Positions 3,155-35,971 are shown, numbered from the stretch's first letter. The stretch is DNA of 64,000 bases from Lytechinus pictus (GCF_037042905.1 NC_087250.1:12650001-12714000), one strand, 5' to 3'. The notes: generated from the letters alone by a model not told the origin. Numbers and translations: made by a program.

Positions 3155-3457
3155 TCATAGAAAATAATACAATGCTAAACATAATATAATAATACTAAGG
3201 ACCAAGAACAATAGAAAATATAAAAGCCTAATAAATACATTATACATGAATTGTAAAAGGATGCTAAGAAATATTACCACTAAGCTTATCAATATCATCA
3301 ATTCATACTTCTGCTTGTTACAAAAATCACCGGAGCAGCAGATACTTAGATTCAAAGATTTCCCCTTGATTGCGAAATACTTTTGACAATCTGATGTAGT
3401 TGCACAACCCCGGTGAATGGTAGCTTCCATCTTCTGGGCGTCAAATGTTCTTGTTAC
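3155..3457 (-). CDS. Ly6/uPAR gene B, coding exon 3: VTRTFDAQKMEATIHRGCATTSDCQKYFAIKGKSLNLSICCSGDFCN plus a long hydrophobic tail
   Basis: Acceptor tgtgtatacag|GTA in frame with ORF 3155..3523. Has the RGC and CCSGDFCN motifs; TGA at 3155-3157. Confidence 0.88.
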   Translation of the reverse strand, partial: VTRTFDAQKMEATIHRGCATTSDCQKYFAIKGKSLNLSICCSGDFCNKQKYELMILISLVVIFLSILLQFMYNVFIRLLYFLLFLVLSIIILCLALYYFL

Positions 3458-4649
3458 CTGTATACACAACAATAAATTATACAAAGTAGTCAAGTACTCT
3501 AAGGGAGGGGGGGGGGGTGTCAATTTATTTTTGTTTCTTTATTCTCGAGACCGAACACTTTACTTTTGAGTAATGCATGATTATTATCAATATTATCATT
3601 GTCATTGTTATTATTGTTATCTATTGTTATAATTATCAGGATGTTGAATAAGTACTTACAAAAAACACAATTCATATTATATTAAAACACTATTTTCATT
3701 GACCGTAAATGAACTTTGACCTTGATCATGTGGCCTGAGACTCGTGCAAAACAATAAGTGAGACTTGTTTACCCTTATGTCCTCGTGTCATGAACTAGAT
3801 CCATAAACTTTCAAAGTTACGATGGCAATTCAACAATATATACCCCCAACATTTTCAAAGTTTATTGACGTTGCAAAGTTCATTGACCTTGAATTACCTC
3901 TGACCTTGGTCATGTGACCTGAAACTCATGCAAGATATTCAATGATACCTATGTATCATACTTAAGTATCATATTCAATGCTACTTACTCTTATTATGTC
4001 TACTTTTCATGAACTCGTTCAATAAACTTGCAGGGTTATGATAGCAATTCAACAAATACTCCCAACATGACCAAAGTTCGTTGACCCTAAATGACCTTTA
4101 ACCTTGGTCATGTGACCCGAAACTCAGCCAGGATGTTCAGTGATACACCATTATCCTTATTATGTCCAGGTTTACTGAACTAGATCCATAAACTTTCAAC
4201 GTTATATATGATAACATTAAAAAAACTTAACCTTGGTTATATAAGATTTCGATGTTGATTGCCCCAACATGGTCTAAGTCCATTGACGCTAAACGACCTT
4301 TGACATTAGTCATGTGACCTGAAACTCAGGCAAGATGTTTAATTAGCAATACTTAATTATCCTTTTGTCCAAGATTCATAATCTAGGTCAATGATGACAT
4401 TTCAAAAATTTAACCTTCGTTAAGATTTGATGTTGACGACGCCGACGCCGCCGCCGCCGTCGGAAGCGGCACCTATATAGTCTCGCTCTGCTATCAGGTG
4501 AGACAATTATACCAAATGGTAAGAAACGACAAAAGGTGTGGAACTTTGTGTGCGCTTGATATTGGGGTACTTTTAAGTGTTTCCGGTGGCCTAAAAAAAA
4601 AGTGTGTTATTGCTCTATCCATTCTTTTTTCAATATCGATAGAGATCCA

Positions 4650-6490
4650 AGGACTTGTTTTTTTTTTCAAACCAATCACTTGTACCGAGATAATCGATAT
4701 TGTGGCAAACATAAAAAGTGATTGCAGTCCTGGGTATGATGATATAAGTATCAAGGTTATAAAGAAATCAATACATATTTTATGTCAACCCCTTTGTGCA
4801 ATATTCAATCAATGTTTAGAGCTCGGTATATTTCCTGATGAATTAAAGATTGCTCGTGTTGTTCCTGTATATAAAAACGGTCCGAGTGAAAATGTTTCAA
4901 ATTACAGACCAATATCAGTCTTGCCAATTTTTTCAAAGATTTTAGAAAAGTGTATATATAATAGATTATTTGATTTTATTAACAAGTGCAATATATTATC
5001 TCTACATCAATACAGTTTTCGTGCTGGTCATTCAACTTCTTCGGCTCTTATTGATTTTGTCCATACTGTTACCAACGCTCTTGATAATAAGAAATATTTG
5101 ATAGCAATGTTTTTAGATTTGAAGAAGGCTTTCGATACAGTTGATCACGCTATTTTATTGAACAAACTAGAATTGTATGGCATAAGAGGTAATGTACTTA
5201 AATTATTTAAAAGTTATCTATCCAACAGAAAACAATATGTTGAAATATCCAAATGCAAATCAAAGCTTAAGATTATCTCATGTGGGGTTCCTCAGAGTTC
5301 TATTATAGGACCGCTGTTGTTTCTCCTTTTTATTAATGATCTTAGTAAAGTATCCAACTTGTTACATTGTATTATGTTTGTTGACGACACTAGTCTGTTT
5401 TTATCTCACACAAACAATTCAATTATTCAATTTCTGAACTTGAATTAATATCTGAGTGGTTTTATGCAAACAAAATGATAATTAATCTTGCCAAAACCAA
5501 TTATATGATTTTTAGTAATTTATTTTTTATAGATAGATAGATAGTCTTTTAATTAGAATGTGCAATACAGATATTAAGTGTGTATCGTCAGTAAATTTTT
5601 TAGGAATAACAATAGATAATAAGTTTACATAGAAAAATCATATTGATAATCTGTACAATAAGCTTGCCAAAAATATAGGAATAATGTATAGATTAAGATC
5701 ATTTCCCAAGGAGATTTTAAAACTGATGTATTATGCCATTGTATATCCATACCTCAATTATGGTATTCTAGCCTGGGGAAGTGCAAGTAGCATTCACATT
5801 TATAGATTATATATTTTACAAAAACGTGCAATAAGAATTATGTTTCATGCTCCTTACCTTGCCCATACGAATCCTCTATTTGTTGAATTGAATGTATTAA
5901 AATCTTATGATATTCATGCATTTCAAATTCTTATATTTATGTATTTATGTAACAATAACCTCTTGCCAGATTATATCAAAACATTCTTTAAGTTCAATAG
6001 TGATTTCCATGGATACAACACAAGAAATGCAAAGGATTTTCATCTACCTAAGCCAAGACTCTCATCTTTTAAAAACTCAATTTCATTTCAAGGACCACAA
6101 CTCTGGAATTATGTTTCTGTAGATATCAAGCAATCAGTTTCGTTAAATGTTGTTATGTCAAAATCAAGGCAATTTATTTTAAATAGTTATTCATAAAGTT
6201 TGTTTGTATAAATTTTATTCAGGCATTATAGGCACCCCCCCCCCCTTTACGTTGTAGTTTAGTGACTTTGTTTTTCTATCTTTGTTATTGAAGTCTTTGT
6301 ATAATTATTATGTTATAGGGTCAGCTAATCACAAGGCTTGTTCCTTTCTTGCTGCCCCTCTCATATTCAATCCAATGTGTATTTCTATTTGTTGTTGTTG
6401 TTTTTCTATTTTGTTAATACGATGCTTTGTATATGTAGTGTTTTTTGTATTGATTTTTATAACCAAATAAATTGAAATTGAATTGAATGA
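4650..6490 (+). mobile_element. Degenerate 5'-truncated CR1/L2-group LINE in gene B intron
   Basis: NYRPISVLP, FLDLKKAFDTVDH, GVPQSSIIGP and FVDD (catalytic motif altered). Frameshifts and stops lie between ORFs 4498..5448 and 5684..6196; (ATTGA)n-like tail at ~6470-6490. Confidence 0.93.
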
Positions 6491-6496
6491 ACTCAC

Positions 6497-6624
6497 CCGA
6501 CAGCCAAACGCACAATGCACATGTACCCCTGTCTCGGAGCAGACCTCATCCATACTGGTCATCACTTCATGTGTAATGGAATGAGTGCAATGGTAGCAGT
6601 AGTCAGCTTTTACAAGTGCTCCAG
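6497..6624 (-). CDS. Ly6/uPAR gene B, coding exon 2: (A)GALVKADYCYHCTHSITHEVMTSMDEVCSETGVHVHCAFGCR
   Basis: Acceptor ttttgtttag|CT and donor CGG|GTGAGT; 128 nt, phase 1 to 0. Has CYxC and five Cys, with the same layout as gene A exon 2. Confidence 0.9.
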
Positions 6625-6992
6625 CTAAACAAAATATATTTCGAAAAAGAGGAAATAAATGATGATTTAACATCATTAATATAATGACAACAGTTTACAC
6701 AAAATATGTGGTCAAGAGACATCATTTTTGTTGGTTAATTGGGTAAACCGACACCACTTAAATGATGTGTAAATTTTACACCATGTTGTGTACATTATTT
6801 ATTGATAACATGTCTTCTCTCCTATGTTTTACTGAACAAAATGATTTGCCTGATAAATTAAAGACAAATATTCATGCGTGCATGCTCTAACTAATTATAG
6901 TGGGTCAATTTCCCCTTATCGCTCTTAAGATTGAGAGTCCGTAGAGGTTCATGTATTGCGAGTTTCAATTCATAAATCATCAGTAATTATGC

Positions 6993-7266
6993 GGGCGCGT
7001 CGTGGTCTAGTGGTTCTGACTTTCGCCTTTCAAACCAAGGGTCGTGGGTTCGAATCCTGGCCATGGCGTGTTTTCCTTCAGCAAGAAATTTATCCGTACT
7101 GTGCTGCACTCGACCCAGGTGAGGTAAATGGGTACCCAGCAGGATTAATACCTTGCATGCACTGAGCGCCGGTGATGGTAGCTCGAGCTAAAGCCGGGGT
7201 AATATGATAAAGCAGCGCTTTGTATCCTCGGGAAAAAAACGCTTTATGAATCCAGCTATTATTAAT
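6993..7266 (+). mobile_element. tRNA-derived SINE; family copies at 26899-27198, 58914-59221 and a related one at 45819-46160
   Basis: Pol III A box (TGGTCTAGTGG) and B box (GGTTCGAATCC), conserved core gcaagaaatttat...cactcgacccaggtgag..aatgggtacc, and a (TAT)n tail. Confidence 0.9.
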
Positions 7267-7502
7267 ATTGAGTAAATTAGAGTGTAGCCATTGCCTGTAC
7301 ATGCGGGTCTGTACAGTGAAAAAAAAACCCAAAATAATAAAATGCATATTAAACAGGTGTGCACCTGTAATCCAAAAGGTGCATTGGGAGAAGTTACAAA
7401 TTGATGCAGAGGTTTCGAGCCCTGCATGATCGAGGAGTGTTTCATAAAAGGAATGTCGGATGGTTTATCCGACAAGTCCCGTTTAGCCTGCCCTACAGTT
7501 AA

Positions 7503-8111
7503 AGGATGGTCCGGGCTGAAAATGTTTATATCTAAATAAATAGAGTAAAATTTCGTCTAAATCGAATAAATTATTGATAAACTTAAAAATTTCATTCGAT
7601 TTAGATGAAATTTTCAGCATTTTGCTCCGTGAATTTTACTCTATTTATTTAGATATAAACATTTTCAGCCCGGACCATCCTCCGGGCTGAATGGTCCGGG
7701 CCTTTTTCTTATGTTATTACATGACATCATAAGTGTTTCATTTTTTCATACATGTGTAAATGATGTGTCTCCGTTATTATGAAATAAGTTGCGGCAGTAA
7801 ATAACCAATTCACTTAATCAATTGTCAATCCAATTGTTTTAGTTCTTGGAAGAAAATTTTTAATAAACATAATTTCATATACTAGTACATGTAATAAAAT
7901 ACAAAAGAACAAGTGGGGATATGACATCATCAGCCCATCTAATGAATATTCATAACGACATGCCTAGAACTGTTTCACCGGAATAATGCAAATCTTTAAA
8001 ATTAAATAACTTCGTTATTTGTTATCCGATTTTGATCAAATTTTCAGCATTTTGCTTTGTGAATTTACTATATTTATTGAGATATAAATATCTTCAGCCT
8101 GGACCACCCCT
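7503..8111. mobile_element. TTAA-flanked AGG...CCT MITE (Kolobok/CryptonA-like); relatives at 1-190, 36990-37851, 46750-47252, 55072-58225 and split across 25440-35110
   Basis: TTAA-AGGATGGTCCGGGCTGAA...TTCAGCCTGGACCACCCCT-TTAA; shared motif agtggggatgtgacatcatcagcc. Confidence 0.82.
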
Positions 8112-8114
8112 TTA

Positions 8115-9814: not shown

Positions 9815-9923
9815 TTAAGGAATAAAATGTTTAGACGGATACTTAAGATTTTCAGCAGGGTATTTGAACATTAAAGGCCCTGACTAATCCAATATTTTTA
9901 ATAGACATAATTATAGGTCTTAC

Positions 9924-11595: not shown

Positions 11596-11821
11596 GTAGT
11601 AGTATTAGTAGTAATAAGAGTAATGGTAGTAGTAGTAGTAGTAGTAGTAGTAGAAGAGGAAGAGGAAGTAGTAGCATATTAGTAGTGGTAGCACGAGTAG
11701 TGGTAAAGTAGAAGTAGTAGCATCGCAGTATATATGCTCTCGTCGTATTAGCAGTCTGGGCCTAGCAGTATAACATACATAGTCATGATAGTTACTACTA
11801 ATACTAGTACTTGTACAACTA

Positions 11822-11890
<69 letters not shown>

Positions 11891-11902
11891 CACTACTACT
11901 AC

Positions 11903-12237
11903 CAGTGGCGTACCTAGGATTTTCCACAGGGGGGGCAAAATCGTCCGCCAAAAATTTGACAAGCAAAAAAAAAAAAAAAAGGTCTTCAAGTTCAATCACA
12001 AAACAAAGGATTTCGTATTAAAAAAAATTGACAAGCAAAAAAAAAAAGAAAAAAAAAAGGTCTTCAAGCTCGTCAGGGGGGCAATAAAGGTCTTCAAGCT
12101 CGTCAGGGGGGGGCAAAAAAGGTCTTTCAAGCTCGTCAGGGGGGCAGGGATACGTCCTTTGCATTGGTTGTGGCTCGTCAGGCCAGGGGGGGCAGACTGC
12201 CCCCCTGCCCCCCCCCCCCCCCGTAGGTACGCTACTA
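11903..12237. mobile_element. Short CAGTGGCGTA-type MITE within (TAC)n
   Basis: CAGTGGCGTACCTA...TAGGTACGCTACTA with internal aaggtcttcaagctcgtcagggggg repeats. Confidence 0.75.
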
Positions 12238-12632
12238 CTATCACTACTACCACTACTACTTCCACTACTATACTACCACTATACTACTACTACTACTAGA
12301 TCTACATATACTATACTTCTACTACTATACTACTAATACTACTACTACTACTATACTTCTACGTACTACTACACTACTACTACTACTACTACTACTACTA
12401 GTACTACTACTACTATACTACTACTACTACTTCTACTGCTACTAGCTACTACTACTTGCTCTACTTGTACTACTACTACAACTATAGTGTCGCGATTTTA
12501 TACCTTCTGTAATATACCATGCATTAACAATGACCCAGTCAAAGTATGATAATCAGACCAGTTGCGTTTGGCAAATGTACAGCTCAGTTTTAACACTAAC
12601 AGCATAAAATGAAAAACATGATGTATACTTGC

Positions 12633-14290: not shown

Positions 14291-14327
14291 AATGGCTAAG
14301 ATGATAGTAGTAAACGTATGGCCCCTT

Positions 14328-19800: not shown

Positions 19801-20934
19801 TCATCTTCCACATACTCGTACAGCTTTTTCACATACAACAACTATTGTCACAGGTCCATTTTGGAATGATCTACTACCCGACTCTAAAGATTGCAATTCT
19901 ATAATACTTTTAAGCGTAAATTAAAACTTTTATTTTAAACAAATATCTTAATGACAATTCCTCGGCTCCCTAGTGTTCCTCTTAACTATTGTCAGACCAC
20001 CCTCCTGTGTGTTTTTCCCTTCTTCTTTCTCTCGTTTTTTGGAAATATTTCTCTCTTTCTCTTTCTTTTCTTGTAACATATTAATATTAAAACAAAGTGA
20101 CAATTACCTATAATTTTATTAGGCCTAATAGGAAAACTATAAATTACAAGCTCTGCTTTTTTTTTGAGGGGCCCACATTGTACAAGCATTAGTGGGTCCC
20201 TCCATTTTCATTTCCATCTTTATTTAATTTCTATTGAAAAAATAGTATACATATTTGAAAACCTACAATGTGTTGCCCAAATTGTCTAGGTGTTTTTTTT
20301 CACAACATATGTATTATTAATTTTTTTTTTGCAACGGATACAAATATTTATGTTTATATATTATGGTATACAATTTGTTTTTGTTTGATGGAAGTGAAGT
20401 AAATAAATTTGAATTTGAAATTTGAATTTGAATAGTTTGCCCTTCATACCCTCATCTTGATCTCTCTCTAATCTGAACGTTCAATTGTATAACATTTGTC
20501 TTAATCATTATGAATAATGGTGATGTATTGTATTATTTTATTAATTATTGATAATTTAATGTTTTTCGATGGACGTTACATTGTATTTGATATTTTGTGA
20601 GATGTGATAAACAAAACCAAACCGTGGTGTTACTTAAATCCTAGAATTGCAGTCATTATTCCATTAAGGCTGTGTGTGATTTGTATCAAATGATTTGATA
20701 GATGGAATCTGTGTTGGTCGGGTCTTGATGTCACACCAGGCTATACACATTCAAACCAAAACTTGAGACCAGAGTTTATATCAAAATTGAATATAGAATT
20801 AGGGTAATAGAGGGTAAATTTGTTGCACCTAAAGCGACAACGGATAGATTAGTCATGCATAAATTATCCATCATCACTTTAATCCGACCTGAAACAAATT
20901 CAAGGTCTTAATTACATTCTAATAAGAAATATTA

Positions 20935-21249
20935 TATTGACCCACCTCTCACTAATTCTCTTGTTATTCATCATTTCCTCACACCCCCTATCACTGTTTT
21001 GTTCCAGATCCTGTTTGATATCCTGTTTGATTACTTACACTGACTTCCCTTTGTGTCTACCTACTCTTTTGCTTTCATCCCCTTCTCTAACCTGATTGGT
21101 CATCGCAACTCTCTAATGGCCTTTTTGTCCCCTTGTATCTAGTGTTGTTGTTGCATGTTTATGGTCTATATTATGTTTGTTATATTTGTAATTTTGCCTC
21201 CGACGAAGATTCTGCTAGGATCGAAAGCTTAGGCCCCTTTTTGACTCTC
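20935..21249 (+). mobile_element. Penelope-like element fragment (pLTR-type) with 12-bp target-site duplication
   Basis: Flanked by taagaaatatta at 20923-20934 and 21250-21261; ends with a hammerhead-like motif typical of Penelope pLTRs. Confidence 0.7.
21196..21234 (+). ncRNA. Degenerate minimal type I hammerhead ribozyme
   Basis: GCCT-CCGACGA-A-GATTC(TGCTA)GGATC-GAAA-GC-TT-AGGC: stem I GCCT/AGGC, stem II, and palindromic AGCT stem III. The CUGANGA core carries a U->C change. Confidence 0.6.
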
Positions 21250-21349
21250 TAAGAAATATTACAGTAAGAATTAAAAAAAATATGTTCTACGATGATTGAT
21301 AAGCTTGTGACCCATGATCGTTAAGTGGGTCTTTTGTCCTGTTGGTCCA

Positions 21350-21571
21350 TCAGTTATAAACAGCAACAGCTACGAAGGTTGCACACAACATGGCCAGCAG
21401 CTTCGCGGGGTAGACAGTGCCGACACCGTTACAGAAATCACCGTCACAACAGTGGATACAGGCTGTAATCCCCTCGTCGCTCGCGCAAGTGTTAAGACAG
21501 TCCACGGTCGCATCAACGCAACCCCGAGCCCAGGTTTGACCTAGTACATCACCTAGATCCGTCGAACCTTT
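21350..21571 (-). CDS. Ly6/uPAR gene A, coding exon 3: KGSTDLGDVLGQTWARGCVDATVDCLNTCASDEGITACIHCCDGDFCNGVGTVYPAKLLAMLCATFVAVAVYN*
   Basis: Acceptor ctcttacag|AAA, phase 0. Has the RGC and CCxxDxCN LU signatures, then small residues and a hydrophobic GPI-type tail, ending at TGA (21350-21352). Not in the ORF track on this strand. Confidence 0.92.
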   Translation of the reverse strand, partial: KGSTDLGDVLGQTWARGCVDATVDCLNTCASDEGITACIHCCDGDFCNGVGTVYPAKLLAMLCATFVAVAVYN

Positions 21572-22466
21572 CTGTAAGAGATCAAATTACACAAGTGATC
21601 ATCATAAAAGAAAATAAATGTACACAAAGAGGACATTAAAGTGTTGACCTTCCATTGATTAAAACCAAAGTCATAAGGGTAAAAGACCTGCTTCCGATGA
21701 TAGGTTAACATTTTGTTCGATGTAAAAAAAAAAAAAAAAAAAAAAAAAAGTGGTATAGAGGTTAAAAACGGCAGATGTATAATTACCAGAAGCAGATACG
21801 TAAACTGTCACCCCCAAACCAACTATAAGTCTCCCAAAATGAATCTTGAGATTTGCTTGTAGCTTGAAAAAGTATATCCCGGGCTTTAAATATAACATAA
21901 CACTTGTTAAAATTTATTAAAACTGATGCTGACACGCAGTATTTCATTGAATCAAGTAAGTGAAAATTCGGGATATAAAAAGCACGAGGTGTGCACTTGG
22001 TCAAATTTCACTCAGTCAGGAAAAAATTGTTTAAAAAAGAAAGAAAAGTATCTGCGCCGCGGCTTACAAAGAGTTGCGATTGATCCAATCAACCACAACT
22101 ATGGAAAGCCAGTAACCTCAACATAATTTTATAAAACAGACGTTTGTTCAAAATATTTAATTTGTAGATAATATATTCATACATTCACTATTTTCTTGAC
22201 AAGTCAGTTTGCTCTTTTTTCCTTCAAACGACATTGTGCAAATTTCCTAAAGAAAATGACATTGATGGATTTCCATATACTTGAGGTTAGTCGGATCAAT
22301 TGTAACTCTTTGTAAGACTGGGCCCTGCTATTTCGTCTTTTACAACTTCAAATTTTCCAGTATGCAGAGGGAAAATTATTCATTCAGAAAAGTTCATTTT
22401 ATGAATTTTACTTTTTGAAGACCAAATATTATTCTGGTTATTTAATGTCCGGCTAGCCAGGAGAAA

Positions 22467-23063
22467 CCGGAGGGGGGGGGGGCACTCAGTATATAATGCA
22501 TAGTGGGTATGTGCCGCGGAGGGGACCCCCATTTTTACACTCAAATTTCCGTTCCAAGGCATAGCATTTTTGTCTCATTGAGAAAAAGAACAAAGAAAGC
22601 CGCTCCAAAGCATATATATAGCATTTTCTTCTTATCGTGAAAAAAAAAGAAGAAAGAAGTCCGCTCCAAAGCTTCGCATGTTTTCCGTTACGCCGTTCCA
22701 GCCGCATTGATCTGCTACAATGAGCCGCAATTTTGGTGAAAAGCGGCCGCAGAGCGCTGTCCGGCTATCGCCTCTGCGCTAGCGCACCCGCGGCGGCCGT
22801 GCCGCCGGGCTAGCTGCATGCACGTATGCCCGTTCCATAGGGATGCATACGCACTCACACGCAGGCGACCCGTTCCAAGGACCCCCGTTTTCACAAACAT
22901 TTGTAGTTTCGAAGCCCGTTCCGAGGAACCTCCTTTTTACAATAAGCCCGCTCCAAGGCCCACATTTTCGCCTCGCCCGCGGCACGTACATACCATGGAC
23001 CTATTACGAATAGGTCCATGTACATACATACTACGTTTTTGGTCGAGTACCCCTCCCCCGGGG
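22467..23063 (+). mobile_element. CCGG(G)n-terminated MITE, copy 1 (gene A intron 2)
   Basis: CCGGaGGGG..GCACTC...GAGTACCCCTCCCCCGG with ggagaaa duplicated on the flanks; homologous to 62317-62854. Confidence 0.8.
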
Positions 23064-23446
23064 GGAGAAACAAACTTTACACATGTTGATTTTTATAACT
23101 ACACTCTATAATAAACTATATTGAAGATAGCAGACCTTGGGCACTTTAAGTTCATTTTCTGGTGGGGTTCACTATAAGTTTGTATAAATATATTATATAG
23201 TTCGTCCAAACAGTAATGCAATATATAAGGTTTATATTATCCTATATGATTAGACTCATACTCACATTGGTACTTAACTATATATTCATGAAATGAGTTA
23301 GGAAAGATTTCTGGAATGAAAAAAAAAATATTTCGTTGGGGGAAAAAATACACAGCAAAAAACGGACTAATCACATCAACAACTGCAAATCAAAATAGAA
23401 AAAACACCCATCCCAAGCACTTATAGGCCTAAAATAAAACACTTAC

Positions 23447-23589
23447 AGCACAGCCATTTGGGCAATCAACGTCAGTGACATTGGAATCCTTTGGAAACGG
23501 ATCTTGACATCTTGGGTCACTTCCGGGAATATCCGGCGATGCGCTGACGTAGGCACAAGAGTAACATTTGTCTGCTTCGCCAACACGAG
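23447..23589 (-). CDS. Ly6/uPAR gene A, coding exon 2: (A)RVGEADKCYSCAYVSASPDIPGSDPRCQDPFPKDSNVTDVDCPNGCA
   Basis: Acceptor ccacag|CT and donor GCT|GTAAGT; 143 nt, phase 1 to 0. Contains CYxC, Cys1-5 of an LU domain and an NVT sequon. Confidence 0.92.
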
Positions 23590-25845
23590 CTGTGGATGAT
23601 AAAGATTGCATTTTTACTTTCATATCCGAAGTAAACTAAATAAAGATGACTGTGCGTTTGCGATCGACGGCGAAGCAGGCGACGCTAGTTCGCACCTATG
23701 TCATCTGTCATGTATGTTGGCCCAAATTAACAAATTATAATGACAATGTTCGCTGTCAACACCCATTTTGCTAAGATGTCCATGCTGCTGATTACATTGT
23801 CCTGCATAGCAGATCGATCGAGACTATAGGGCCTATCTTAGACACCGCTTTTCCGGCGGCGGCGCGGCGTCGTCAACATTGGAACCAAGGTTAAGTTTTT
23901 TGAAATGTCATCATAACTTAGAAAGTATAAAAACCTAGTTCATGAGACTTGAACATAGGAGTAATCAAGTATTACTGAACATCCTAGCTGAGTTTCAGGT
24001 AACATGACCAAGGTCAAAGGTCATTTAGGGTCAATAAACTTAGACCAAGTTGGGGGAATCAATATCGAAATCTTAACCAAGGTTAAGTTTTTGAAATGTC
24101 GTCATAACTTATAAAGTATATTGACCTAGTTCATGAAACTTAAACTGATGGGTAATAGTGAATCACTAAATATCCTGTGCGCGTTTCATGTCACATGACC
24201 ACGATCAAAGGTCATTTAGGGTCAATGAACTTTGGCCATGTTGGGGGTATTTTGTTGAATAGGCATCATAACTTAGAAAGTTCATGGATCTACTTGTACC
24301 GACACGTTGTTTATGAAACATAGACATAAGGGTAATCAATTATGTTTTGCGCACATCTTGGTCACATGATCATGGTCAATTGTCATGTTGGGTCATTGGA
24401 CATACTATTTTATTATCATGTGTTTTATTTTGTGATGAATTATTGAACAGCTGTTTTCAAAGTCAGTACTGCTGCTATATTGAATCGCGCAACGCAGGCG
24501 AGACTACCAGAGGCTTTCCACTTGTTTGGTTGAGTCCTGCTTCATAAATCCTGCTATGGCGATGTTTTCATATGGCTCTAGTAGACTTAACTCTTTAATA
24601 AGGCACTGAGCATGCTCAGTACTGCTTTATTACACTGAGCATGCTCGTTACAGTGTTATAATAGAGCGCAAGCTTCAGTCATCGATTCGACCCACGGGCC
24701 AAGTAAGCATATTTAGCCGTCGATTTGGCCCATGGGCCAAATTGGCATAAAGTTAGCCCGTGCGGGCTAAATTTAGCCCGTGGGCTAACACGTTTGTGAA
24801 ATGCTCGGTGGGCTAACCTAGCCCAAAGGGGATAGTTCGCCCATGGACATGGGCCAAATTTAACCCGGGCTAAGTTAGCCAACATTTGAGAATGCGGGCC
24901 CATGTGCCCGAGTGTTTGAACGGGTGATCGTAAAAGTAGTGGCTCTGCTATAGTCCGCACAATTAACACAATAATAAATGCGTTCAGTAGCTATAGCAGA
25001 GCCACGCTACTGAACGCATTTATTATTGTGTTAATTGTGCGGACTATTTTAGTTCGGGCCTGGTGCGGACCAAAAAATCATGAATTTCTGAAAGGGGTAT
25101 TAGACTTGTATTTTTTCAGAGTATTACCTCAATATTTGATTAAAAAACAGAGAGCTCTGAAAATCTTTCAAGGCGAGACTCGAAACTGCGTTAATGATTT
25201 TAGCTGGGTACACTTACAGTAACGCATCATTTTACTGATCGCGCCACAACAGTCTAGCTGATCGATGCGTTTAAAATTACCTTATATTCTTTCCATGAAT
25301 ATTCATAACGCGTAGTCTGACCAGATAAACCCTACTGGATACCATGCAGGTCCGTAACCAGGATTTCTTACGAAGTTGAAAAATTTGAGCGCGAAGCGCG
25401 AGCCGAATTTCTTGAAGCGGTACTCCAGGCCGATAATAAAATGATTTGAATAAAGAAAAACAAACCACTAAAAATTTCATCAAAATTGGACAAGGAATAA
25501 GGAAAGTATGACATTTTAAAGATTCTCATTATTTTGGTGAAACAGTTGATCTACAGATCTATGCATGTCTTCATGCATTTTCAATTAGAAAACTGATGAC
25601 GACATATCCCCACTTGTTCTTTTGTATTTTATTATATGAAATAATTTTTAATCAAATTTTCGATTTACATTAGAGATAATCATTGCTGCAATTGAATTTT
25701 TTTCATTAGGGAGACATGTCATATACACATTATTGAAATATGGAATAATTACGATTTCTTATAATTAGTCCGGGAACAAAAACTCATAGGGGCCCTTTTT
25801 AAAGAGTTTGTACAACCCACACCAAAGAAAAGGTTTGACACCGTA

Positions 25846-26162
25846 GGCCCGTATTCTGAAGTCAGGTTTAACCTACATCATGGTCTATAACTCTGTGCTA
25901 AAATTATTATGGGAAGCCAAATATTCAAAAATTCTGTTTCTATTGTATATTTCTTATGTTCAATAGTTTGCTTTCATAATGAAGAAAAATACTTCAAAAT
26001 ACTTTATTTATCATTCCTAAACAGTTATGAACAATTTGAGTGTCATATGAGCTAATAAATTGGATGTGTACTGTTAAGGATTTGTGCCCCAATTGGCTCT
26101 CCATAGTTAAACCACAACTTTATATCAGGGTTTGATTTAAACCCGAATTCAGAATACGGGCC
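25846..26162. mobile_element. PIF/Harbinger-like MITE nested in the left long TIR
   Basis: TIR GGCCCGTATTCTGAA...TTCAGAATACGGGCC; absent from the matching position of the right TIR. Confidence 0.85.
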
Positions 26163-27489
26163 ATAGGGTTGTAGTATGGACCCTCTTGATTACTGCTAGG
26201 TAGGTAGTAGTCTCAAATTGTGGTATCACTTTTTTTTTCTACAGTCGAATTTAAAGAGCGATGTAAAATAGCAACAAATTGAAAAAATCAAGAACCTTCA
26301 AGGGTAAGGTGAAATGTAAGTAGCCTTATCTCCGCTTGTATATTCCATAAATACGTCATTCATGTATCAAAATGTTGCTGGGAACAGCTCTAACGTTACA
26401 CTAACATTTATAAATCAAATTTAGATATCAAACCTTCAAAATAGGAATACACCCATGACCAATGTCCACTTCCATCTCAAGTAGATATGAAAAAATTGAT
26501 ACGATAAAGTGATTTTGTGTTGTTAAAAATGAGGCGATCTGTATAACTACAATGGGACTAAATATGAGTTATTCATAACAAAATGAAATTTTTTGCAATA
26601 TCATTAACATTTCATATATGTTTTAAATACTATTTTTCACAATTTTGTAGTGCCGTTAGCTTGAGATCCAACGCTGCATGAATCAATTAGCATTTCTTGT
26701 TCACTGGGGATATAATCAGTTCCCAACCATATTCCATTTTCTTTCTTCAAACTCAATTTTATTTTTATTTCTTTAAATTGTAAATTCTTTTATAGGGTTC
26801 ATTGACCGAAATGCCTCCCCCAGGGGGTGGGAGGGGGGCTGCCAAAGTCACCCCATCCTTTTCCTAAAGTTTGTCTATTTCTTGGAAATTTGCCATGTGG
26901 AGCGTTGTGGCCCAGTGGATTAGTCTCCGGACTTTGAAACAGAGGGTTGTGGGTTCGAATCCCAGACATGGCATAATTTCCATCGGCAAGAAATTTATGC
27001 ACATTGTGCCGCACTCGACCCAGGTGAGGTGAATGGGTACCCGGGGCCGGTAGGAAGAAATTCCTCAAATGCTCGAGCGCCCGATAAAGGTAGCCGTGCT
27101 AAAGCCGGGGTAATAATAATAGCAGGGCCCGCTGGGAGAACAGTTTTCGGAACTGAAGTGGGTACCCTGGGTAAATATGCCGTTATTGTTATATTATTTT
27201 GACATGTTTGAAGTTCCTTTTGAGGCGGGTAGCATTTCTAATATGTAGTCAACCCTCTTTTATTCATTTGAAACCACTTTAAGAAAAAGGAGTAACCTAT
27301 TATCCATCTTTTATAAATAAAGAGGTACTGGCAACCTTCTCGCTCAGGGGGGGGGGGGTGCCAAAGTCACCCAGCCACTTTTAGTATTTTGTCTATTTAT
27401 GTAAAAAATCTGCCATTTTGAGGCCCCGTTGAGGCAAAAAGAACATTTCTTCAATGTAGTAAAGCCACTTTTATTGTCATGAAATCATT

Positions 27490-28320
27490 TGGGCGAACAG
27501 TTCAAAACTTCATTTTAATCAAATTTTACTTATCCAAAAAAGACTAATAAGAATTATTAATGATACAAGTTACCGGGCTCATTCTAAGCCACTCTTTTAT
27601 TCATGTAATGTTCTACAAATCCATGATCTTTATGCATTTAACCTTGGAATATTTATGTTTCAACTCTCAAGAAAAGAATTACCCACTATCGTATCTTCTC
27701 TATTTAGAAGGAATGACGAGATTCACAGCTATCCTACTCGTCAAAGTCATTATTATCATCTTCCACGTACTCGTACAGCTTTTTAACATAAAACAATTAT
27801 TGTCACAGGTCCATTACTTTGGAATGATCTACTAACCGACTTTAAAGATTGCAATTCTATATATACTTTTAAACGTAAATTGAAAACTTATATTTTAAAC
27901 AAATATCTAAATGGCAATTCCTCGGCTCCCTAGTGTTTCTCTTAATTATTTTTAGTCCACCTCCCTCTTTTTTTTTTCACTCCTTCTTCTTTCGTTTTTT
28001 TTGGGGGAAATATTTTTTTCTCTTTCTCTTTCTTTTCTTGTAACATATTGATATTAAAACAAGTTGACAACTACTTATAATTTCATTAATAGGGAAACTA
28101 TAAATTACAAGCTCTGCTTTTTAATAGTTTGCCCTTCATATCTTCATCTTATTGATATATCTGTCTCCAATCTGAACGTTCAATTGTATACATTTGTCTT
28201 ATTTATTATGAATAATGTTGATGTATTGTATTTTTTTATTATTAATGATTTACTGTCTTTTGATGGACGTTACATTGTATTTGATATTTTATGAAATATG
28301 AAAATAAACCAAACTGAACT
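27490..28320 (+). mobile_element. Short 3' copy of the same LINE family as 19160-20622
   Basis: Colinear, high similarity to 19160-20622 (for example aacagttcaaaacttca...ggacgttacattgtatttgatatttt) but lacking the two inserts present in that copy. Confidence 0.88.
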
Positions 28321-29239
28321 GGAATTGCCTATTTATGGGAAAATATGTAATTTCGAAGCCCTATTGAGGTAAAAAGCTGCTTCCGCTGTTTCCGATACAG
28401 CAAAAATGCCATTTTGCTCCAAAGGGGATGCCAAAATACGATATTTCCAAATACATGTCAAGGTCGAAAAAGGGTGAGGTAACTTTTAACAGGTTCCTGT
28501 AACCAGGATAATATTTTGAGCAAACATGTCCTCAATAATTTGCAGGAGATCAATAAAAAAAAATCTGCTTCACTGAAATATGCGTTAAATCTACTCCTAG
28601 GTCATTTGCATCCTAAGTTCATGCCTTTTCTTATTCTCCTTGCTTGCTTGCCCATCTATGCTCTTTTCTTCTCCTCTCTTCTCTTCTCTTCTCTACCTTT
28701 CCCTTTCTTTTTTAATTGTTGTTTACTCATGGTTTTAAAGTTATCCATATTTCCGACAAAGGCACCTGCTTTCTGGGTTCTTACGCATTCTTCCATGTAA
28801 AATTTATTACTGTATTTTACATTCATTGTTTTCTCTACTATATTAATGATATTATTGATGTGTAAACATTAAAATTGATTAAATGTCAATTGTGTTATAT
28901 ATAAGTAGAATTGTAGAGCAATTACATTCATTTATTTAGTTATTTCCTGTTTAAGGATATTCATAGCATATAATGATTAAGAATATTCCAGAATGTCTCA
29001 TTAAAGCTTTCTTAGGCATGCCTATTTAATGAGATGGTATAATTTTTGTTATTTCTGGAATGTCCAAAGGTAGACAATAGAACCTGCCTGCAGTGAAAAG
29101 AACGATAGGATTAGCTATGTTATTTACGTTGTTAATTTTACTGAGGTCATTCAAGAGATCTAGAAGTGGACTATTGTAGAAAGAAGGATAATGTTCTTTT
29201 TAAAGATAATACTAGAAGCTTCCAGAATAGTGTAAATTT

Positions 29240-29670
29240 AAACCAAAACAGACTTAATCCCAGATATGTGCATATTTTGGAAACGGGATAAGAAACTTGC
29301 AATTATTGAACTCACGGTTCCTTTCGAAACAAATCTGATCAGGGCAAATGAACGAAAATCAAATAAATATGCACCTATGATTTCGGACATAGATGCCAAT
29401 GGTTTCGATGTGGTTTTCCTTCCTATAGAAATAGGTTCCAGGGGCTATATCAGTAGCGACAATTCACAAAAGCTGAAGAAATTTCTCTCGTTATGTGGGA
29501 AACCAGTGCCTTTCAAGACCTTTCGGGATAAACTTGCGTCACTTGCCATCACTTCTTCATTTGTAATATATTCGGCCAAGGAGGAACCCGTATGGGAATG
29601 TCATAACCCACTAATGTAATATGAAATAATGTAATAATAACCAAATACCGTAAGACAAAAAAAATAATAA
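29240..29670 (+). mobile_element. 3' fragment of a restriction-like-endonuclease non-LTR retrotransposon (HERO/NeSL/R4 group)
   Basis: PD...IIELTVPFE...ANERKSNKY...PIEIGSRG motif (PD-(D/E)xK-type RLE), a stop at 29619, then a (TAA)-rich tail. Confidence 0.85.
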
Positions 29671-32306
29671 AATAAAAAAAAATATTACGACTTATTGTGA
29701 GGATTTCCAAAATGTGACCCCCCCCCCCCATCACATACACTCTCAGAAATATTTTGCTCAACATAGTGCCGTTGGCATAGTTGGTAGGCGTATGGGCCTT
29801 CCGACTGTTGATTGATGAAATGCATTCGTTTCGTGTGCAATTTTCTTTGTCCAGCGGTTGGTTGGGTTCATGTGTTGACCAGCCCAATACTTTTTTTTTT
29901 GAGAGTGTATGATGTGTTGAAGGAAATAAATATCCATTTATATGTATCCTAAAAAGGAAGAAAAGTTGAAATCTGGTCACTTGCCTGTGTCGGGGTATAT
30001 GTGCAATCATTTGAATTTATTTAATGCCCTGGAAGTCACATGTTGTTTTCTCTCTCTTTCTCTCTCACACCCCCCTTTCTCTTTCTCCCACCAGCCCCCA
30101 CCCTCTCTCTCCCCTCTTTCTCATTCCTTCTCTCACTTCTATTTTTATTTCACCTTTGTATGTACCATCTCTCCCTTCTTTTATTTCCACCTCTCTTTTC
30201 TTAACTGCTTTAGTTCTCGTTTTTTTTTCTACATACTGTACTTCATGCTTGTTTTAATATTTTGACTCGGGGTAATTATAGTAATGTATTGTATATGCTA
30301 TTATGTTAATATAATCTATGTTATTCATGTATGCCCTGCTTGTTCTGTTACTCAGATATGTCCTGGGCGTTCCTTTCTTCTATGTTTGCATATATTTTAT
30401 TCCTTTGTTTGAACGATTTGAATGTTAATAAAGTGATGAATTACTACTATAAGCTGGCAGTTTCTTCAGTTTAACACCAGACTTTATGTCGGAGCATAGT
30501 TTATTTCCAACTGGAATACAATATTCATCTTCTGTGGAATTATTTAAACGCCATGCGCAGATCCAGGGGGGGGGGGACAGGGGGCACGTGCCCCCCCCCC
30601 CCTTGAAAAGCAAAATTAAAATTTGTAGTGTGGTTGAAAACCTTTTTTTGTGGCTTGTAAAAATTTTCCTCCGACAAATTTGCCCCCCCCCCCCCATTTT
30701 GGAAAATCCTGGATCCGCCCCTGCCATCAATGAACTGTTTGCAGTTACTTTGAGAGAGGAATTCTCAGTTCTCATCGAGATCATCAACCTGCTTTAATGA
30801 ACGCTTTTCAACCCATGGATTTCTGAAATTGACTGTTAATCACCATTAACATCGTCTTCGCAGACATTTCAACTCGTTACAGTGACTCTTATTTTTCATC
30901 GTGTTTCAACATCAATTTCATCATCGCCAGCATTGTGGATATTAATTTAAGGAGCCTTCGCCAGCAAACTTGGACATAATCATTTGGAATATTTATGGAC
31001 TTATCAGAACTGACAATTCAAGAGATGTAAGAATATTATTTATATTTTGTTTAGTGTATGATTGATCTATTTCCTGTAATAAAAGAAAAGGAAATCAAAT
31101 TTAAAACTAAATTTTCATTGCTATTTGTTGCAGTATCGTAACAATTGGAATAAAATAGATGTTTAATTGAATTGAATGAAGTTAAATAATACAACAACAC
31201 AACCTGAGACATTCCTTCAATTACTTTATTCATTTTCAAATGATTGGGAGTACTGAGTATAGTAACATTCATCTGATAATTGAACTTGATCATCATATAA
31301 ACTTCGTTTGAAAATTATCACGAAATACAGATTTTCACTTCGAAATGTTTGTCGTATCACTGGGCCTATCATTTAATATCAGTTTGATACTTGTTATTTA
31401 GGTGGCGGAGATCATTATACCTATGGGGAAAACGACTTGGAAATATCAACATTTATATGATGTTCAGTAATTAATACTGCAAAAATGGAGGGCTTGGGGC
31501 CGTTGACCCCTAAACGAATTTTGCGATTAAAAAAATGAAGTTAGAAGAAAGAAAAGGAAAGGAAAGAAATATTATATTTTCTGGATAATATGTCATAATT
31601 TGTAAAAAAAAAACCAGATGGTGTATTAAAAACGTAATTTTTGTCTCAATAGCTTCGGTCTCGCACAGTTCCTTAGACATTTTGCCCCATACTCCATGTC
31701 TGGCCCCATCATTTTAATTTTTGAGGGCGGGGTCCTACGCCAGTGGTAATGAATTTGGCTTGGATCAGATTATATTGCCAGTAAAAAGTAAATCTAATTC
31801 TAATTGATATAAGCAGCGTTGGATCCCAAACTAACGGCACTACAAGATTGTAAATATAGTAGCCCGTAGGCTAGTTAGAACATATCTGGAAATGTTTTGA
31901 AATCTTCATTTTGTTATGAATAACGCATATTTAATCCAAGTACAGTTTGATAGAGCGCCACATATTTAAACACAAAAATCAAGTTATCGTGTCATTTTTT
32001 TCATATCTACTTGAGATGGAAATGGACACTAACCATTAGTTTATTCCTATTTTGAAGGTTCGATATCTCAATTTTACTTTTAAATGTTGCTGTAACATTA
32101 GAGCTGTCACCCAGCAACATTTTGCTACATGAATGACGTATTTATTACATAATACAAGAGGAAATATAGCAAGTTACATTTCACCTTCTCCTTAAAAGTT
32201 GTTGATTTTTTTTCATTATTTGCTATTTTACATTTTTCTTTAAATTCAACGGTAGTAGAAAAGTGATACCACAATTTGAGACTACTACCTACCTAGCAGT
32301 GATCTA

Positions 32307-34064
32307 CAGTGCGTCCCCAAAAAACTATACACTTTTAAAATGGCTGCCAAATAAAAAATATAGCACTTTTGGGAAAAACACTTATATATCATGGAAGCCA
32401 ATAAAGTCAACTTTCAAATGACACCAAAGAATTGGTAAACGATTCATGCTTGAGCGAGCACTGCCCACTGTAACAAAGGGTATGAAAATTAGGCTGGGCT
32501 GGAATTAGCCTTCCAAATTCTGTCAGTTTTTGAAAGGCAAATCCGTTGGAACTTGCAAAGTTTAAGGGTGTTGCGATAAATTGATGACCAACGGTGACCA
32601 ATTTTGGTTGTTTAAGCAAATTTCATGAATTATCAAATTGAATTTTAATGCATGAGTGAACACAAATTACACTTTTTTGGGCAGCATTTCAACTTTATCA
32701 TGTTAATCTCAGCAATGTGTTCATGGGTGTCAGGAGAATAGGGGTGACATAGGACTGAAGTGGGAGAAGGAGGTTGATGGAATAAGGGTCAACAGAACAT
32801 GTAGCCCCCCCCCCCCCTCCGTCTCTCCCGCCCTCCCCTCTTGTTGAGAGACTGATTGCTATTGTCATGTACACATGAAGTCCAGAGCAGAATGTTGATT
32901 TAATGATAAATTCTGAATTGGGCATCAATGTATTCCTATCAATCATTTAATCAACAATTTATCAATAAATAAACTCATTCAATGTGCGATGTGACCAATC
33001 AATCATTCATTTTTTCAATTAATTATTTCATAAATCATCATAATCAGTCAATTTCTTGGTAATCATTCAATGAAAAAAAAACTGACCATCAGCCCCCGGT
33101 CACTTGGCAGTTAAGTTTTGAATAGGGTACAATCCAGGAAGTGAGACAGAGAGAGAGAGAAGAAGCCGGGGAAATGGAGGGGGAGGGGGTACATAATTAT
33201 GACCTTTAATTTGTAAAAGGACGCAAAGAAGAGGGATGCCCTTTTGACCAAGTCTTACCATACCTCTTGCTTGTATCGGGTACCATCACATTACTCTGAC
33301 TCTCACGAACACACTGGTGAGGTCCACAAGATGAATATGCTACACTAAAGTTACAATTCCTGTTCACTTATGCATTAAATTTCAATTTAGTAACTCGTGG
33401 AATTTGCCTAAGAAACCATAACTTATCTCACTCATTAATTTAGCATAACACCCATAGCTTTGCAAGTTCCAAAGGACTAACCTCTCAAAAAACTGTAAGG
33501 CTAATTCCTGCCCAACCTAGCCAAGCTTAGTCTCTCAGGAGGAGAGAAGTGGGGGAGGTGGTAGAGATGGAGGGAGTGGTTGCTAAATGTTCTGTTGACC
33601 TTTATCCCATCAACGTACTTCACCTACTTAAGTCCTATCTGATCCCCTATTCTCACGACTCTCATGCTGAACACATTGCTGAGATCATCAATGTTAATTA
33701 AAAATGCTTCACTAAAAATTGCAATTCATGATCACTCATGCATCAAACTTCAATTTAATAACTCATGAAAGTTTCTCAAACAACAAACTGATCACAATTC
33801 ATCATTAATTCATCACAAAACCCTCAACTTTGAAAGCAAAAAAAAATGAAAGAAATTGGAAGGCTAATTCCGGCCCAACCTAATTTTCATACCTTTTGTT
33901 TCAGTGGGCAGTGCTCGCTCAAGCATGAATAGTTTTCTAACTTTTTGTTGTCATTTGAAAGTTTATTTTATTGGCTTTCCATATATATAAGTCTTTTCCC
34001 CCAAAGTGATATATTTTTTATTTGGCAGCCATTTCAAAAGTGTATAGTTTTTTGGGACGCACTG
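32307..34064. mobile_element. Tc1/mariner-like non-autonomous element nested in the right long TIR
   Basis: TA-CAGTGCGTCCC...GGGACGCACTG-TA with TIRs over 200 bp; absent from the left TIR. Confidence 0.9.
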
Positions 34065-34275
34065 TAGAGGGTCCATACTGACTACCTATGGTATCAAACC
34101 TTTTGTGTGGTGTGGGTCGTACGAACTAATTTTTCACAGGTCCTTGCTCCCGGACTTAACATAAAAAAGGAAAGTGGGGATGTGGCATCATCAGCCTACA
34201 AAATGAATATTCATGACGACGTGCATGTTTTCATAAGACATTGCTAAGTTTGAAAATTCAATAACTTCTTTATTT

Positions 34276-35031
34276 GAAGAGTTTGGTTCCAAAGGGGTTA
34301 GGTCCACTTTCGACCATTCAGAGAAAAACCTTTTTTTATTCTAACTTATTGCCAAATTCTTATGAGAAACTAAATTGTCATCATGTACTACCCTATCATG
34401 TGAACATAAAATTGGGTATAAAGAAATCTACCTGTCTTCATTTTTTCTATATATTCTTTAAAAAATTATTACTGTGGACCTAATCTCTTTTGTAAGCAAA
34501 GTGAAATGCATCCAATCTCTTTTGATTAAAAAAGTGATTTTTCTTGGCCACTTTTATTCACGTTTTCATGTTTGGTATCATCAGAGCGACTAAAAATTCA
34601 AAGGTTTTGAGACAGAAAACCAAATTTATGAAAAATGGACCTAACCCCTTTTGAAAAATGAGCTCTTCAGAAGAGTTAGGTTGCAAAAGGGGTTAGGTCC
34701 ACTCCAAGAAAATCTTTTTTTTTTAATTCTCCCATATTGCAATGTTCTTATGCGAAACTAAATTTTTATACCCTACCATGAGAGCATAAAATTGGGTATA
34801 AGAGAAAAACTACCTGTCGTTATATTTTTTTTAATATTCTTTTCCAAAAAGATCTATGTGGACCTAACCCCTTTTGAAAAAAAGTGATTTTTCTTTGCCA
34901 TTTTAGTTCACTTTTTAATGTGAATTTCAACTGTTCTTTGGTTTCATTTTATAGAGCTACTAAAAATCTATACATTGAGGAAAAAAAATTGATGAATATT
35001 GGACCTAACCCCTTTTGCAAGTGAGCTCTTC
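34276..35031. mobile_element. Tandem dimer of a GAAGAG...CTCTTC MITE with ATTT TSD (Sola-like)
   Basis: Units 34276-34668 and 34670-35031, each with ggggttaggtcc/ggacctaacccc subterminal repeats; ATTT on both outer flanks. Confidence 0.75.
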
Positions 35032-35922
35032 ATTTGTAATCACATTTTTTGAGGAAATAATCAGCATTTTGCTTGGAGATGATTACTTTCAGCCCGGAGT
35101 ACCCATTTAATATACTGACCGAAATAGGGACACCTTGACTCGTGAAGATGATACGCCATCTTACCAACCAGATGATGGGAGCGCAAAAAGCAAGCTGAAA
35201 ATTATTAATATTCGAATCTGACTTGAAAAGTCGACATCCTAAGCACTCATTTTGTAACCATGATCAAGATGCTGTTGCAAGGAGTTGAACACGTTAAGCA
35301 CTGTTTAAAAGTGTTTGTCTTAACACAAATACCAGTTGTGGTTCAAAAATATAATTATGAATCTCTCAAAATGACCACCAAAGTGCTTATATGTACGAAG
35401 AAAGAACATGTACCAAATTGAACATTGTTAATCTCTATTTGTATTTGATAGATATTAATCCGTTATATTTTTTAGGGGACTCACATAAACAAGCGATGCT
35501 TTCCAGTGAGTTCCCCTTTTCATTTCTGTTATTCATATTCTGATTTTTTCCTACTTACTTTGTAATTTTGTTTGAAATGAAGAAGAATAAAGTCAATCAA
35601 TCAATCAAATTATACCGATAGAAAATTTTTCATTGCTTTAAAAAAATAAAAAAAACCAACCATGGGAAAGATGTCGGGAGATTTTCCATGCAATAATAAT
35701 GCACTGTTCCACATGACATGTGCTTATGTGTTTGTGATCTTCGGTGTCACGGTCATTTTATTTCAGTTTCATCATTTATCTTTGATCCCGAAGGAATTCC
35801 AGACAACCCCATTTATGAATTAAAACTTTGCCGCAGCACGTAGGTCACATAGGTTTCAGATTATACACTAATTCAAGTGCGCCCGTCACCCCTCCCCCGG
35901 CTAAGACTTAAATAAGACTTAC

Positions 35923-35971
35923 CGAACGCAAGGAGTAACATCAGCAAAAAGATCGAAGAAAACTTGTCCAT
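35923..35971 (-). CDS. Ly6/uPAR (three-finger) gene A, coding exon 1: signal peptide MDKFSSIFLLMLLLAF
   Basis: Minus strand reads ATG GAC AAG TTT TCT TCG ATC TTT TTG CTG ATG TTA CTC CTT GCG TTC G|GTAAGT: hydrophobic N-terminus and a perfect phase-1 donor that matches the phase of the exon at 23447-23589. Confidence 0.8.

Follow-up and report, generated by a model that had tools for sequence, protein, structure and literature searches.

A 64,000-nucleotide (nt) stretch of the genome of the sea urchin Lytechinus pictus (GCF_037042905.1 NC_087250.1:12650001-12714000; hereafter, the window) very probably contains two neighboring genes on the same strand, each composed of three exons, that encode single-domain surface proteins of the Ly6/uPAR (LU, or three-finger) family, which would be anchored to the membrane and modulate partner proteins. 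An earlier note on this DNA, made from the sequence by a model, had proposed that six small exons on the minus strand join through canonical splice sites into two complete proteins. When these exons were joined and translated by script, they spliced in frame and yielded proteins of 137 amino acids (aa) for the first gene, g1, and 163 aa for the second, g2, exactly where the note had placed them (Table 1). The sequence motifs that the note had listed are present as well: D-x-C-Y-x-C occurs as DKCYSC in g1 and DYCYHC in g2, RGC occurs in both, and CCxGDFCN occurs as CCDGDFCN and CCSGDFCN, respectively.

The four introns all begin with GT and end with AG, with the donor sequences G|GTAAGT, G|GTAAGT, G|GTAAGA, and G|GTGAGT. 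Intron 1 of each gene interrupts the region encoding the signal peptide in phase 1, where it splits an Ala codon (G|CT) directly after a Phe codon (TTY G|CT), and the second intron lies in phase 0, one residue past the fifth cysteine (Cys5) and before Cys6 (..NGCA|K.. in g1 and ..FGCR|V.. in g2). The joined translation accordingly reproduces the identical intron positions and phases that had been described for the pair. The genes lie approximately 11 kilobases (kb) apart; the first intron of g1 measures 12.3 kb, and the whole of g2 spans 6.8 kb. When all six frames of the 64 kb were searched for the pattern CC-x(2-6)-C-[NDS], three matches were returned, two of which are the g1 and g2 exons. 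We consider the exons to exceed what chance would produce because the pattern is matched only three times, because independent proteins of other species can be aligned to them, and because spliced contigs join position 23447 to 21571, as described below. Using seven related proteins as tblastn queries (E <0.01), we obtained matches exclusively to the six exons and found no third LU gene in the 64 kb. The remaining pattern match, CCPKKCNLCS at 32657-32686 on the minus strand, sits within an open segment of 47 residues that contains five Cys and does not display the LU pattern, and none of the seven related proteins matched this segment.

The LU domain is described as a unit of 60-90 residues, in which ten Cys are bonded 1-5, 2-3, 4-6, 7-8, and 9-10 and the tenth Cys is followed by Asn (PMC6600238). 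Both proteins conform to this consensus. In g2, Cys occupies positions 30, 33, 49, 58, 62, 81, 87, 103, 104, and 109 and is followed by N110, and g1 carries the same ten Cys together with Cys93 and Cys102, for a total of 12, with C111 followed by N112. The extra pair in g1 falls between Cys7 and Cys8, i.e., within loop 3. In the same account, the typical LU gene consists of three exons, one for the signal sequence and two for the domain, which is split at the tip of loop 2, with a phase-1 intron after the signal-sequence exon, and such genes are found in small clusters (PMC6600238). Both g1 and g2 follow this layout: the signal peptide is interrupted in phase 1, and the domain is split in the Cys5-Cys6 interval. 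Each protein begins with a hydrophobic core that represents a putative signal peptide. An alignment of the two proteins over 113 aa shows 27% identity (E 3e-9), and hhalign matched a profile of the g2 exons and their relative P0001 (see below) to the g1-family profile with a probability of 94.1% (E 1.3e-7, 95 columns). A 2026 survey counted 291 three-finger proteins in seven echinoderm genomes, or approximately 42 each (PMC13719153). Because their layout is that of a textbook LU gene and echinoderm genomes hold approximately 42 such genes on average, g1 and g2 are new members of a known, abundant family and ordinary in their organization.

Transcript support for g1 came from four public runs (X1, X2, X20, and X21) aligned to positions 20500-38500. 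A search of public runs with g1 exons 2 and 3 and the untranslated region listed no matching run recorded as RNA, with the RNA status of X1-X19 being a guess, and this outcome carries no information on expression. The g1 junction was taken from contig pieces; the corresponding table of joints is dominated by repeat-derived joints. Two of the four runs contained spliced contigs that carry the junction 23447/21571, namely X2 record 11 (483 nt) and X20 record 20 (506 nt), which cover 23447-23589/90, resume at 21571, and show zero or one mismatched letter per piece. The match of both contigs to the genome ends precisely at the acceptor of exon 2, beyond which they continue for another 10 and 127 letters, respectively, on their 5' side, which indicates that exon 2 of g1 is joined to something upstream. 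Of the four junctions that the earlier note had put forward for verification by RNA, 23447/21571 was thereby recovered in contigs, and no contig piece was shown for 35923/23589. Across the 3' untranslated region (UTR) of g1, contigs of X20 (records 16-18 and 20) and of X2 (records 10 and 11) equal the spliced contigs in depth, and X2 record 9 extends to 20500, the edge of the region examined. The X1 contigs shown are unspliced and cross both 21571 and 23447, which indicates that run X1 holds DNA or precursor RNA. We dropped the raw RNA reads of X21 as evidence for g1, since 94% of the aligned reads continue into unlike sequence and are therefore repeat-derived.

A search of 5.8 billion proteins with g1 exon 3 identified one protein among 35 candidates, LOC121416457 of Lytechinus variegatus (P0002, 131 aa), which is 77% identical, and an exhaustive HMMER search of 1.84 billion representatives (E<=0.001) returned three proteins, P0002, P0003, and P0004. 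Spliced g1 and P0002 share 76% identity over 128 aa (83% within exon 2 and 77-78% within exon 3), which by itself points to a sea urchin as the source of the window, and tblastn of P0002 on the window matched g1 exon 3 with E 3e-35 and g1 exon 2 with E 7e-32. P0002, which is annotated as an 'uncharacterized protein', is the likely orthologue of g1, with which it shares the same 12 Cys, CCDGDFCN, and 23 of 25 tail residues. The two models differ at the N-terminus: P0002 begins with MNLKMHSLSST and lacks a signal peptide, whereas g1 as spliced has a putative one. Directly ahead of the exon 2 acceptor, in intronic sequence (23590-23623, minus strand), the window reads MKVKMQSLSST in frame, which suggests that the RefSeq model of LOC121416457 reads into the intron and probably misses the true signal-peptide exon.

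For g2, a search with exon 3 identified one protein among 12 candidates, P0001 (169 aa), which is encoded on a 1255-nt assembled contig of another public run. Because this contig holds an uninterrupted frame within 1255 nt, compared with a 6.8-kb gene here, it appears to be a spliced transcript, most likely an mRNA of a related species. On the window, tblastn of P0001 matched g2 exon 3 with E 9e-35, exon 2 with E 3e-10, and exon 1 with E 0.004, such that residues 1-24 align to exon 1 and residues 17-72 align to exon 2. Spliced g2 and P0001 are 55% identical over 148 aa, including the whole tail, and they stop at the same position and have VSYIC.AI.TFA at the N-terminus in common. Through P0001, we infer that the g2 junctions 9924/6624 and 6497/3457 are used. 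In P0001, Cys7 and the leading Cys of the CC pair have both been lost, and with them the consensus 7-8 disulfide, though it is a single-LU protein; loss of this bond is described as very rare and as destabilizing in single-domain LU proteins (PMC6600238).

The assignment of both genes to the LU family, as the earlier note had proposed, is supported by the Cys scaffold, profile homology, the fold models of relatives, and the matches of relatives to the Pfam families QVR and UPAR_LY6. P0003 scored above the cut-off for both families (QVR, 2.3e-31; UPAR_LY6, 3e-17), and P0007 scored 27.4 bits for QVR against a cut-off of 27.3. In a protein atlas, 25 of the 30 clusters nearest to whole P0001 belong to the QVR set (top score, 0.93). 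The Foldseek lists obtained with the predicted models of P0002 and P0001 consist nearly entirely of three-finger proteins (all E >0.001). A VIA search of the P0002 model against 48,161 chains returned 89 chains at Z>=2, and the first 35 rows, judged by entry title, are all LU proteins, three-finger toxins, or receptor ectodomains of the TGF-beta family; the scores include Z 7.0 for GPIHBP1, TEX101, and CD177, 6.7 for Lypd6b, 5.2 for Lynx1, and 3.8 for CD59. When the P0001 model was re-aligned to its Foldseek list, residues 28-115 matched GPIHBP1 (Z 5.9) and uPAR (Z 5.0), as well as TEX101 and C4.4A. Taken together, these comparisons point in a consistent direction, which suggests a three-finger fold as seen through weak models of the proxies P0002 and P0001. 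The wide VIA matches of P0001 were rejected: these are coiled coils at Z ~6 that arise from its long C-terminal helix and are meaningless for the LU part.

A profile search recovered five relatives among 254 candidates, including three proteins of the starfish Acanthaster planci encoded on one contig and one protein of Patiria miniata. The architecture of g1, with a putative signal peptide, a 12-Cys LU domain, and a short hydrophobic tail, recurs in the starfish and crinoid relatives (A. planci LOC110982422/429/331, P. miniata LOC119725642, and Anneissia japonica LOC117115570), whose identity to P0002 is only 28-34%; none of these relatives has been studied. LOC119725642 (P0007) carries the UniRef name 'Protein sleepless' and just passes the Pfam QVR model. 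Because relatives occur in urchins, starfish, and a crinoid, the g1 type is judged to be old within echinoderms. The A. japonica protein (P0003) stands apart in its architecture, with 1103 aa and nine tandem 12-Cys LU domains that are joined by acidic, Pro-rich linkers, and its isoforms vary in length.

Among characterized systems, the QVR (PF17064) and UPAR_LY6 (PF00021) proteins, such as Drosophila quiver/sleepless and mammalian Ly6, Lynx1, CD59, and GPIHBP1, share with g1 and g2 the ten Cys and the Asn, the three-exon layout, and, as predicted for g1 and g2, a membrane tether (PMC6600238), and the fold models of the relatives match these structures best. They differ in that the Pfam similarity mostly lies at or below the cut-off and in that g2 lacks the usual signal for a glycosylphosphatidylinositol (GPI) anchor. 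The LU domain of human LYPD6 is described as having an additional, non-consensus disulfide in loop 3 (PMC6600238), and LYPD6/LYPD6B may resemble g1 in this respect; the match of the g1-type model to Lypd6b (Z 6.7) has 18% identity in the structural alignment. Within echinoderms, the Lystar proteins of Asterias rubens are single-LU proteins, and no other echinoderm three-finger proteins have been examined in bench work; Lystar5 reportedly interacts with nicotinic receptors and with an integrin (PMC11595613, PMC12843386). Their likeness to g1 and g2 is drawn from published descriptions. No starfish chain was found among solved structures at E<=10 using the g1-family profile, and the literature searched, which did not extend to the supplements of PMC13719153, contained no paper on a sea-urchin LU gene.

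The C-terminal tails of the two proteins differ. Past the final Cys-Asn, g1 continues with N-G-V-G, TVYPAK, and then 15 hydrophobic residues, which by eye has the shape of a GPI signal. Between g1 and its L. variegatus counterpart, 23 of 25 residues are identical in the tail (residues 113-137; 21352-21426) and 66 of 89 in the LU domain (residues 24-112). A cleaved signal is usually less well kept than the mature domain, not better, and the exposed LU domain might be changing faster. By contrast, g2 shows no usual GPI signal site by eye, and KQKYE runs straight into approximately 48 hydrophobic residues. Between residues 112 and 145, every position except 126 is the start of a 19-residue window with a mean Kyte-Doolittle value >1.6, and stretches of approximately 21 and 22 hydrophobic residues flank N-V-F-I-R (N-x-x-x-R), where P0001 has S-I-F-L-K. 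Over the tail, g2 and P0001 share 29 of 53 residues, and NKQKYEL.ILISLVVI, which is nearly invariant, is the best-conserved part of the protein. The g2-type tail alone found no convincing look-alike in the protein atlas (best score, 0.81). This composition suggests that the g2 tail is most likely an integral membrane anchor and possibly a helical hairpin. LU proteins with a C-terminal transmembrane helix are already on record (PMC13719153), and only the double length of the g2 tail is unusual among LU proteins, which makes it the sole departure from the textbook. As a tentative and rather doubtful proposal, g2 and P0001 could represent a subfamily of the urchin lineage that lacks a GPI signal, uses a conserved double-length tail, with two stretches of approximately 21 residues on either side of a conserved basic residue, as a hairpin or otherwise unusual integral anchor, and is absent from annotated proteomes, with P0001 having lost the 7-8 disulfide.

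Based on these features, both proteins would enter the secretory pathway through their signal peptides. The g2 protein would fold as a three-finger domain locked by the disulfides 1-5, 2-3, 4-6, 7-8, and 9-10, and g1 would form the five consensus disulfides and a sixth from its loop-3 Cys pair. Both would be held at the outside of the cell membrane, g1 after exchange of its tail for a GPI anchor and g2 by an integral anchor formed from its tail, perhaps as a helical hairpin. The exposed fingers would then bind and tune the ectodomain of a receptor or an ion channel, as in Lynx1, QVR/sleepless, CD59, and starfish Lystar5. By analogy to these proteins, g1 and g2 probably function as membrane-tethered modulators of receptors or channels.

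Several points weigh against the reading of g1 and g2 as anchored, partner-modulating LU proteins. Its functional part is drawn from analogy, and its family and fold evidence derives from relatives and single exons rather than from the spliced proteins of the window. In Pfam, scanned with single exons, the g1 exons had no match, and g2 exon 3 matched UPAR_LY6 best, with E 0.025 and 15.5 bits, the cut-off being 24.8; its matches to Activin_recp and Toxin_TOLIP were also weak and below the cut-off. P0002, P0004, P0005, and P0006 had no LU match in Pfam, and P0001 had only QVR at E 0.061 and 14.8 bits. It is because of such marginal scores that the relatives are named 'uncharacterized'. The predicted models are weak, with a mean predicted local distance difference test (pLDDT) score of 53.5 for P0002 (7 alignment rows) and 68.0 for P0001 (9 rows), Foldseek returned nothing from the PDB at E<=0.001 for either model, and a VIA score of Z 6-7 falls in the range that the tool calls common. 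When the g1-family profile was compared with solved structures, the best match (E 0.18) was an unrelated protein, and LU proteins made up 7 of 11 rows at E<=10. AlphaFold rendered the P0001 tail as one long helix (residues 119-168; pLDDT >=90 in the last 30 residues) and not as a hairpin. In addition, the transcript support for g2 is a contig from a related species, with the run alignments covering the g1 region, 20500-38500, and among the contig pieces shown and the relatives examined, none places g1 exon 1 at 35923-35971. For two of the computational checks that the earlier note had proposed, the outcome is divided: in the HMMER comparison, P0003 and P0007 pass, and the single exons of the window and the other five relatives score below the cut-off or go unmatched; in the structure predictions, made for relatives, the best matches are three-finger proteins, at low pLDDT and with no Foldseek match at the threshold.

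With respect to g1, the exon at 35971-35923 is probably its true first exon. An alternative that we regard as unlikely is that g1 is real and its exon 2 is instead joined to another upstream exon, within or beyond the window. That none of the spliced-contig pieces shown lies at 35923-35971 speaks for this alternative, as do the near absence of depth in the bin 35525-36125 in runs X1 (0.39) and X2 (0.82), the length of the proposed 12.3-kb intron, and the different N-terminus of the sole annotated orthologue. However, 35971-35923 ranks first for hydrophobicity among 378 candidates that run from an ATG to a phase-1 GT within 23590-64000, and it ends in the consensus donor G|GTAAGT. Its split Phe-Ala codon at 35923 equals that of g2 exon 1, the use of which is supported by P0001, and its last base, G, fits the one extra base of X2 record 11 at 23590, a match expected by chance in 1 of 4 cases. 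Furthermore, the N-terminus of the orthologue is intron read-through and lacks the signal peptide that a Cys-rich surface protein needs. For g2, the corresponding concern is that the gene is a silent or decaying copy in L. pictus, with its intact frame reflecting either recent inactivation or use only in the species of P0001. This would account for transcript evidence that comes from a related species rather than from this organism, in which the reads examined cover the g1 region only, and it would fit the retroelement inside intron 2 and the recovery of a single relative among 12 candidates. We consider it quite improbable, in that no stop interrupts the 163 codons spread over three exons, all four splice sites are canonical, all ten consensus Cys are kept, and the AT-rich tail has stayed open for approximately 50 codons up to the stop position used by P0001.

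Turning from the individual gene models to what the proteins are and how they arose, the three-finger fold is also common to snake toxins, and there is weak similarity to Toxin_TOLIP, such that g1 and g2 might be secreted toxin-like or defense peptides rather than membrane-tethered modulators. This seems highly improbable: secreted LU members are described as stopping right after the last Cys-Asn (PMC6600238), whereas g1 and g2 continue for 25 and 53 mostly hydrophobic residues past it, respectively, unlike secreted toxins of the snake type, and both tails are kept in relatives (23/25 for g1 and 29/53 for g2). The genes g1 and g2 are old, diverged paralogues, as is typical of the clustered LU family. 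It is conceivable, if somewhat doubtful, that the two are neighbors from different old LU subfamilies within a larger cluster and not tandem duplicates of each other. Their low identity (27%), their differing number of Cys (12 versus 10) and kind of anchor, the origin of the g1 type in the common ancestor of crinoids, starfish, and urchins, and the mere 11 bits that the profile of g1 relatives gives to g2 all fit separate subfamilies, and the gene layout found throughout LU genes would yield a common structure in any case. Against this, g1 and g2 lie on one strand, have equally many exons, carry their introns at matching positions and in matching phases, and split the same codon at the first intron, and LU genes are described as expanding by local duplication (PMC6600238). 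The larger cluster that the earlier note had considered is not borne out within the 64-kb window, where no further LU exon was seen, and its suggestion that automated annotation misses these genes is no more than hinted at by the return of no identical protein for g1 or g2 and by an orthologue model that lacks a signal peptide.

Table 1. Exons of g1 and g2 and other features of the window, numbered from its first letter.
Feature	Coordinates	Strand	Description
g1 exon 1, coding part	35971-35923	-	ATG, signal-peptide core MDKFSSIFLLMLLLAF, one base of the next codon; donor G|GTAAGT, phase 1; probable first exon
g1 exon 2	23589-23447	-	End of signal peptide, Cys1-Cys5 (DKCYSC ... NGCA); phase-0 donor
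g1 exon 3, coding	21571-21352, stop 21351-21349	-	RGC, extra Cys pair, CCDGDFCN, short GPI-signal-like hydrophobic tail
g1 3' UTR, at least to 20574	20574..21348	-	Minus-strand contigs of X20 and X2
g2 exon 1	9984-9924	-	ATG, signal-peptide core MEFTSMMRIVSYICAAIFTF; donor G|GTAAGA, phase 1
g2 exon 2	6624-6497	-	Cys1-Cys5 (DYCYHC ... FGCR); phase-0 donor G|GTGAGT
g2 exon 3	3457-3158, stop ends 3155	-	RGC, Cys7, CCSGDFCN, then KQKYE and ~48-residue hydrophobic tail
Reverse-transcriptase open reading frame (ORF), retroelement remnant	4414-5448	+	RVT_1, E 1.9e-28; in g2 intron 2, antisense to g2, not part of g2
ORF without family, retroelement remnant region	5633-6196	+	In g2 intron 2, antisense to g2
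RVT_1 ORF	1047-2195	+	E 4e-25
RVT_1 ORF	43447-44109	-	E 5e-17
RVT_1 ORF	56409-57827	-	E 2e-39
HTH_psq ORF, 87 aa	50008-50268	+	E 3.3e-4, 20.7 bits vs cut-off 20.4

Beyond the two LU genes, we scanned 71 further stop-to-stop ORFs of at least 85 aa and found four significant RVT_1 matches and one HTH_psq match just above the cut-off (Table 1), the latter of which may be the remnant of a DNA-transposon transposase. Matches to Chromosome_seg at 61471-61761 and to EAF at 11808-12299 fell below the Pfam cut-off, and no other genes were found among these 71 ORFs in the window. The first intron of g1 also contains a repeat at 23505-24706, which includes a 191-nt tandem repeat at 23883-24247. Summed contig depth over this repeat reached approximately 20,000-50,000 in X1, X2, and X20, and reads of the stranded RNA run X21 were strongly one-sided in direction (47.9 and 67.6 versus 0.74 and 0.31). 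The element looks like an abundant transcribed repeat family.

These findings do not bear on any long-standing open question. They indicate that small, multi-exon LU genes of urchins with long introns can be recovered from raw sequence and that the signal-peptide exon is probably missing from the current automated model of the g1 orthologue. If the g2 tail does serve as an integral hairpin anchor, this would constitute a new way to tether a three-finger domain. Together, g1 and g2 add two members to a family of which, within echinoderms, only the starfish Lystars have been studied.

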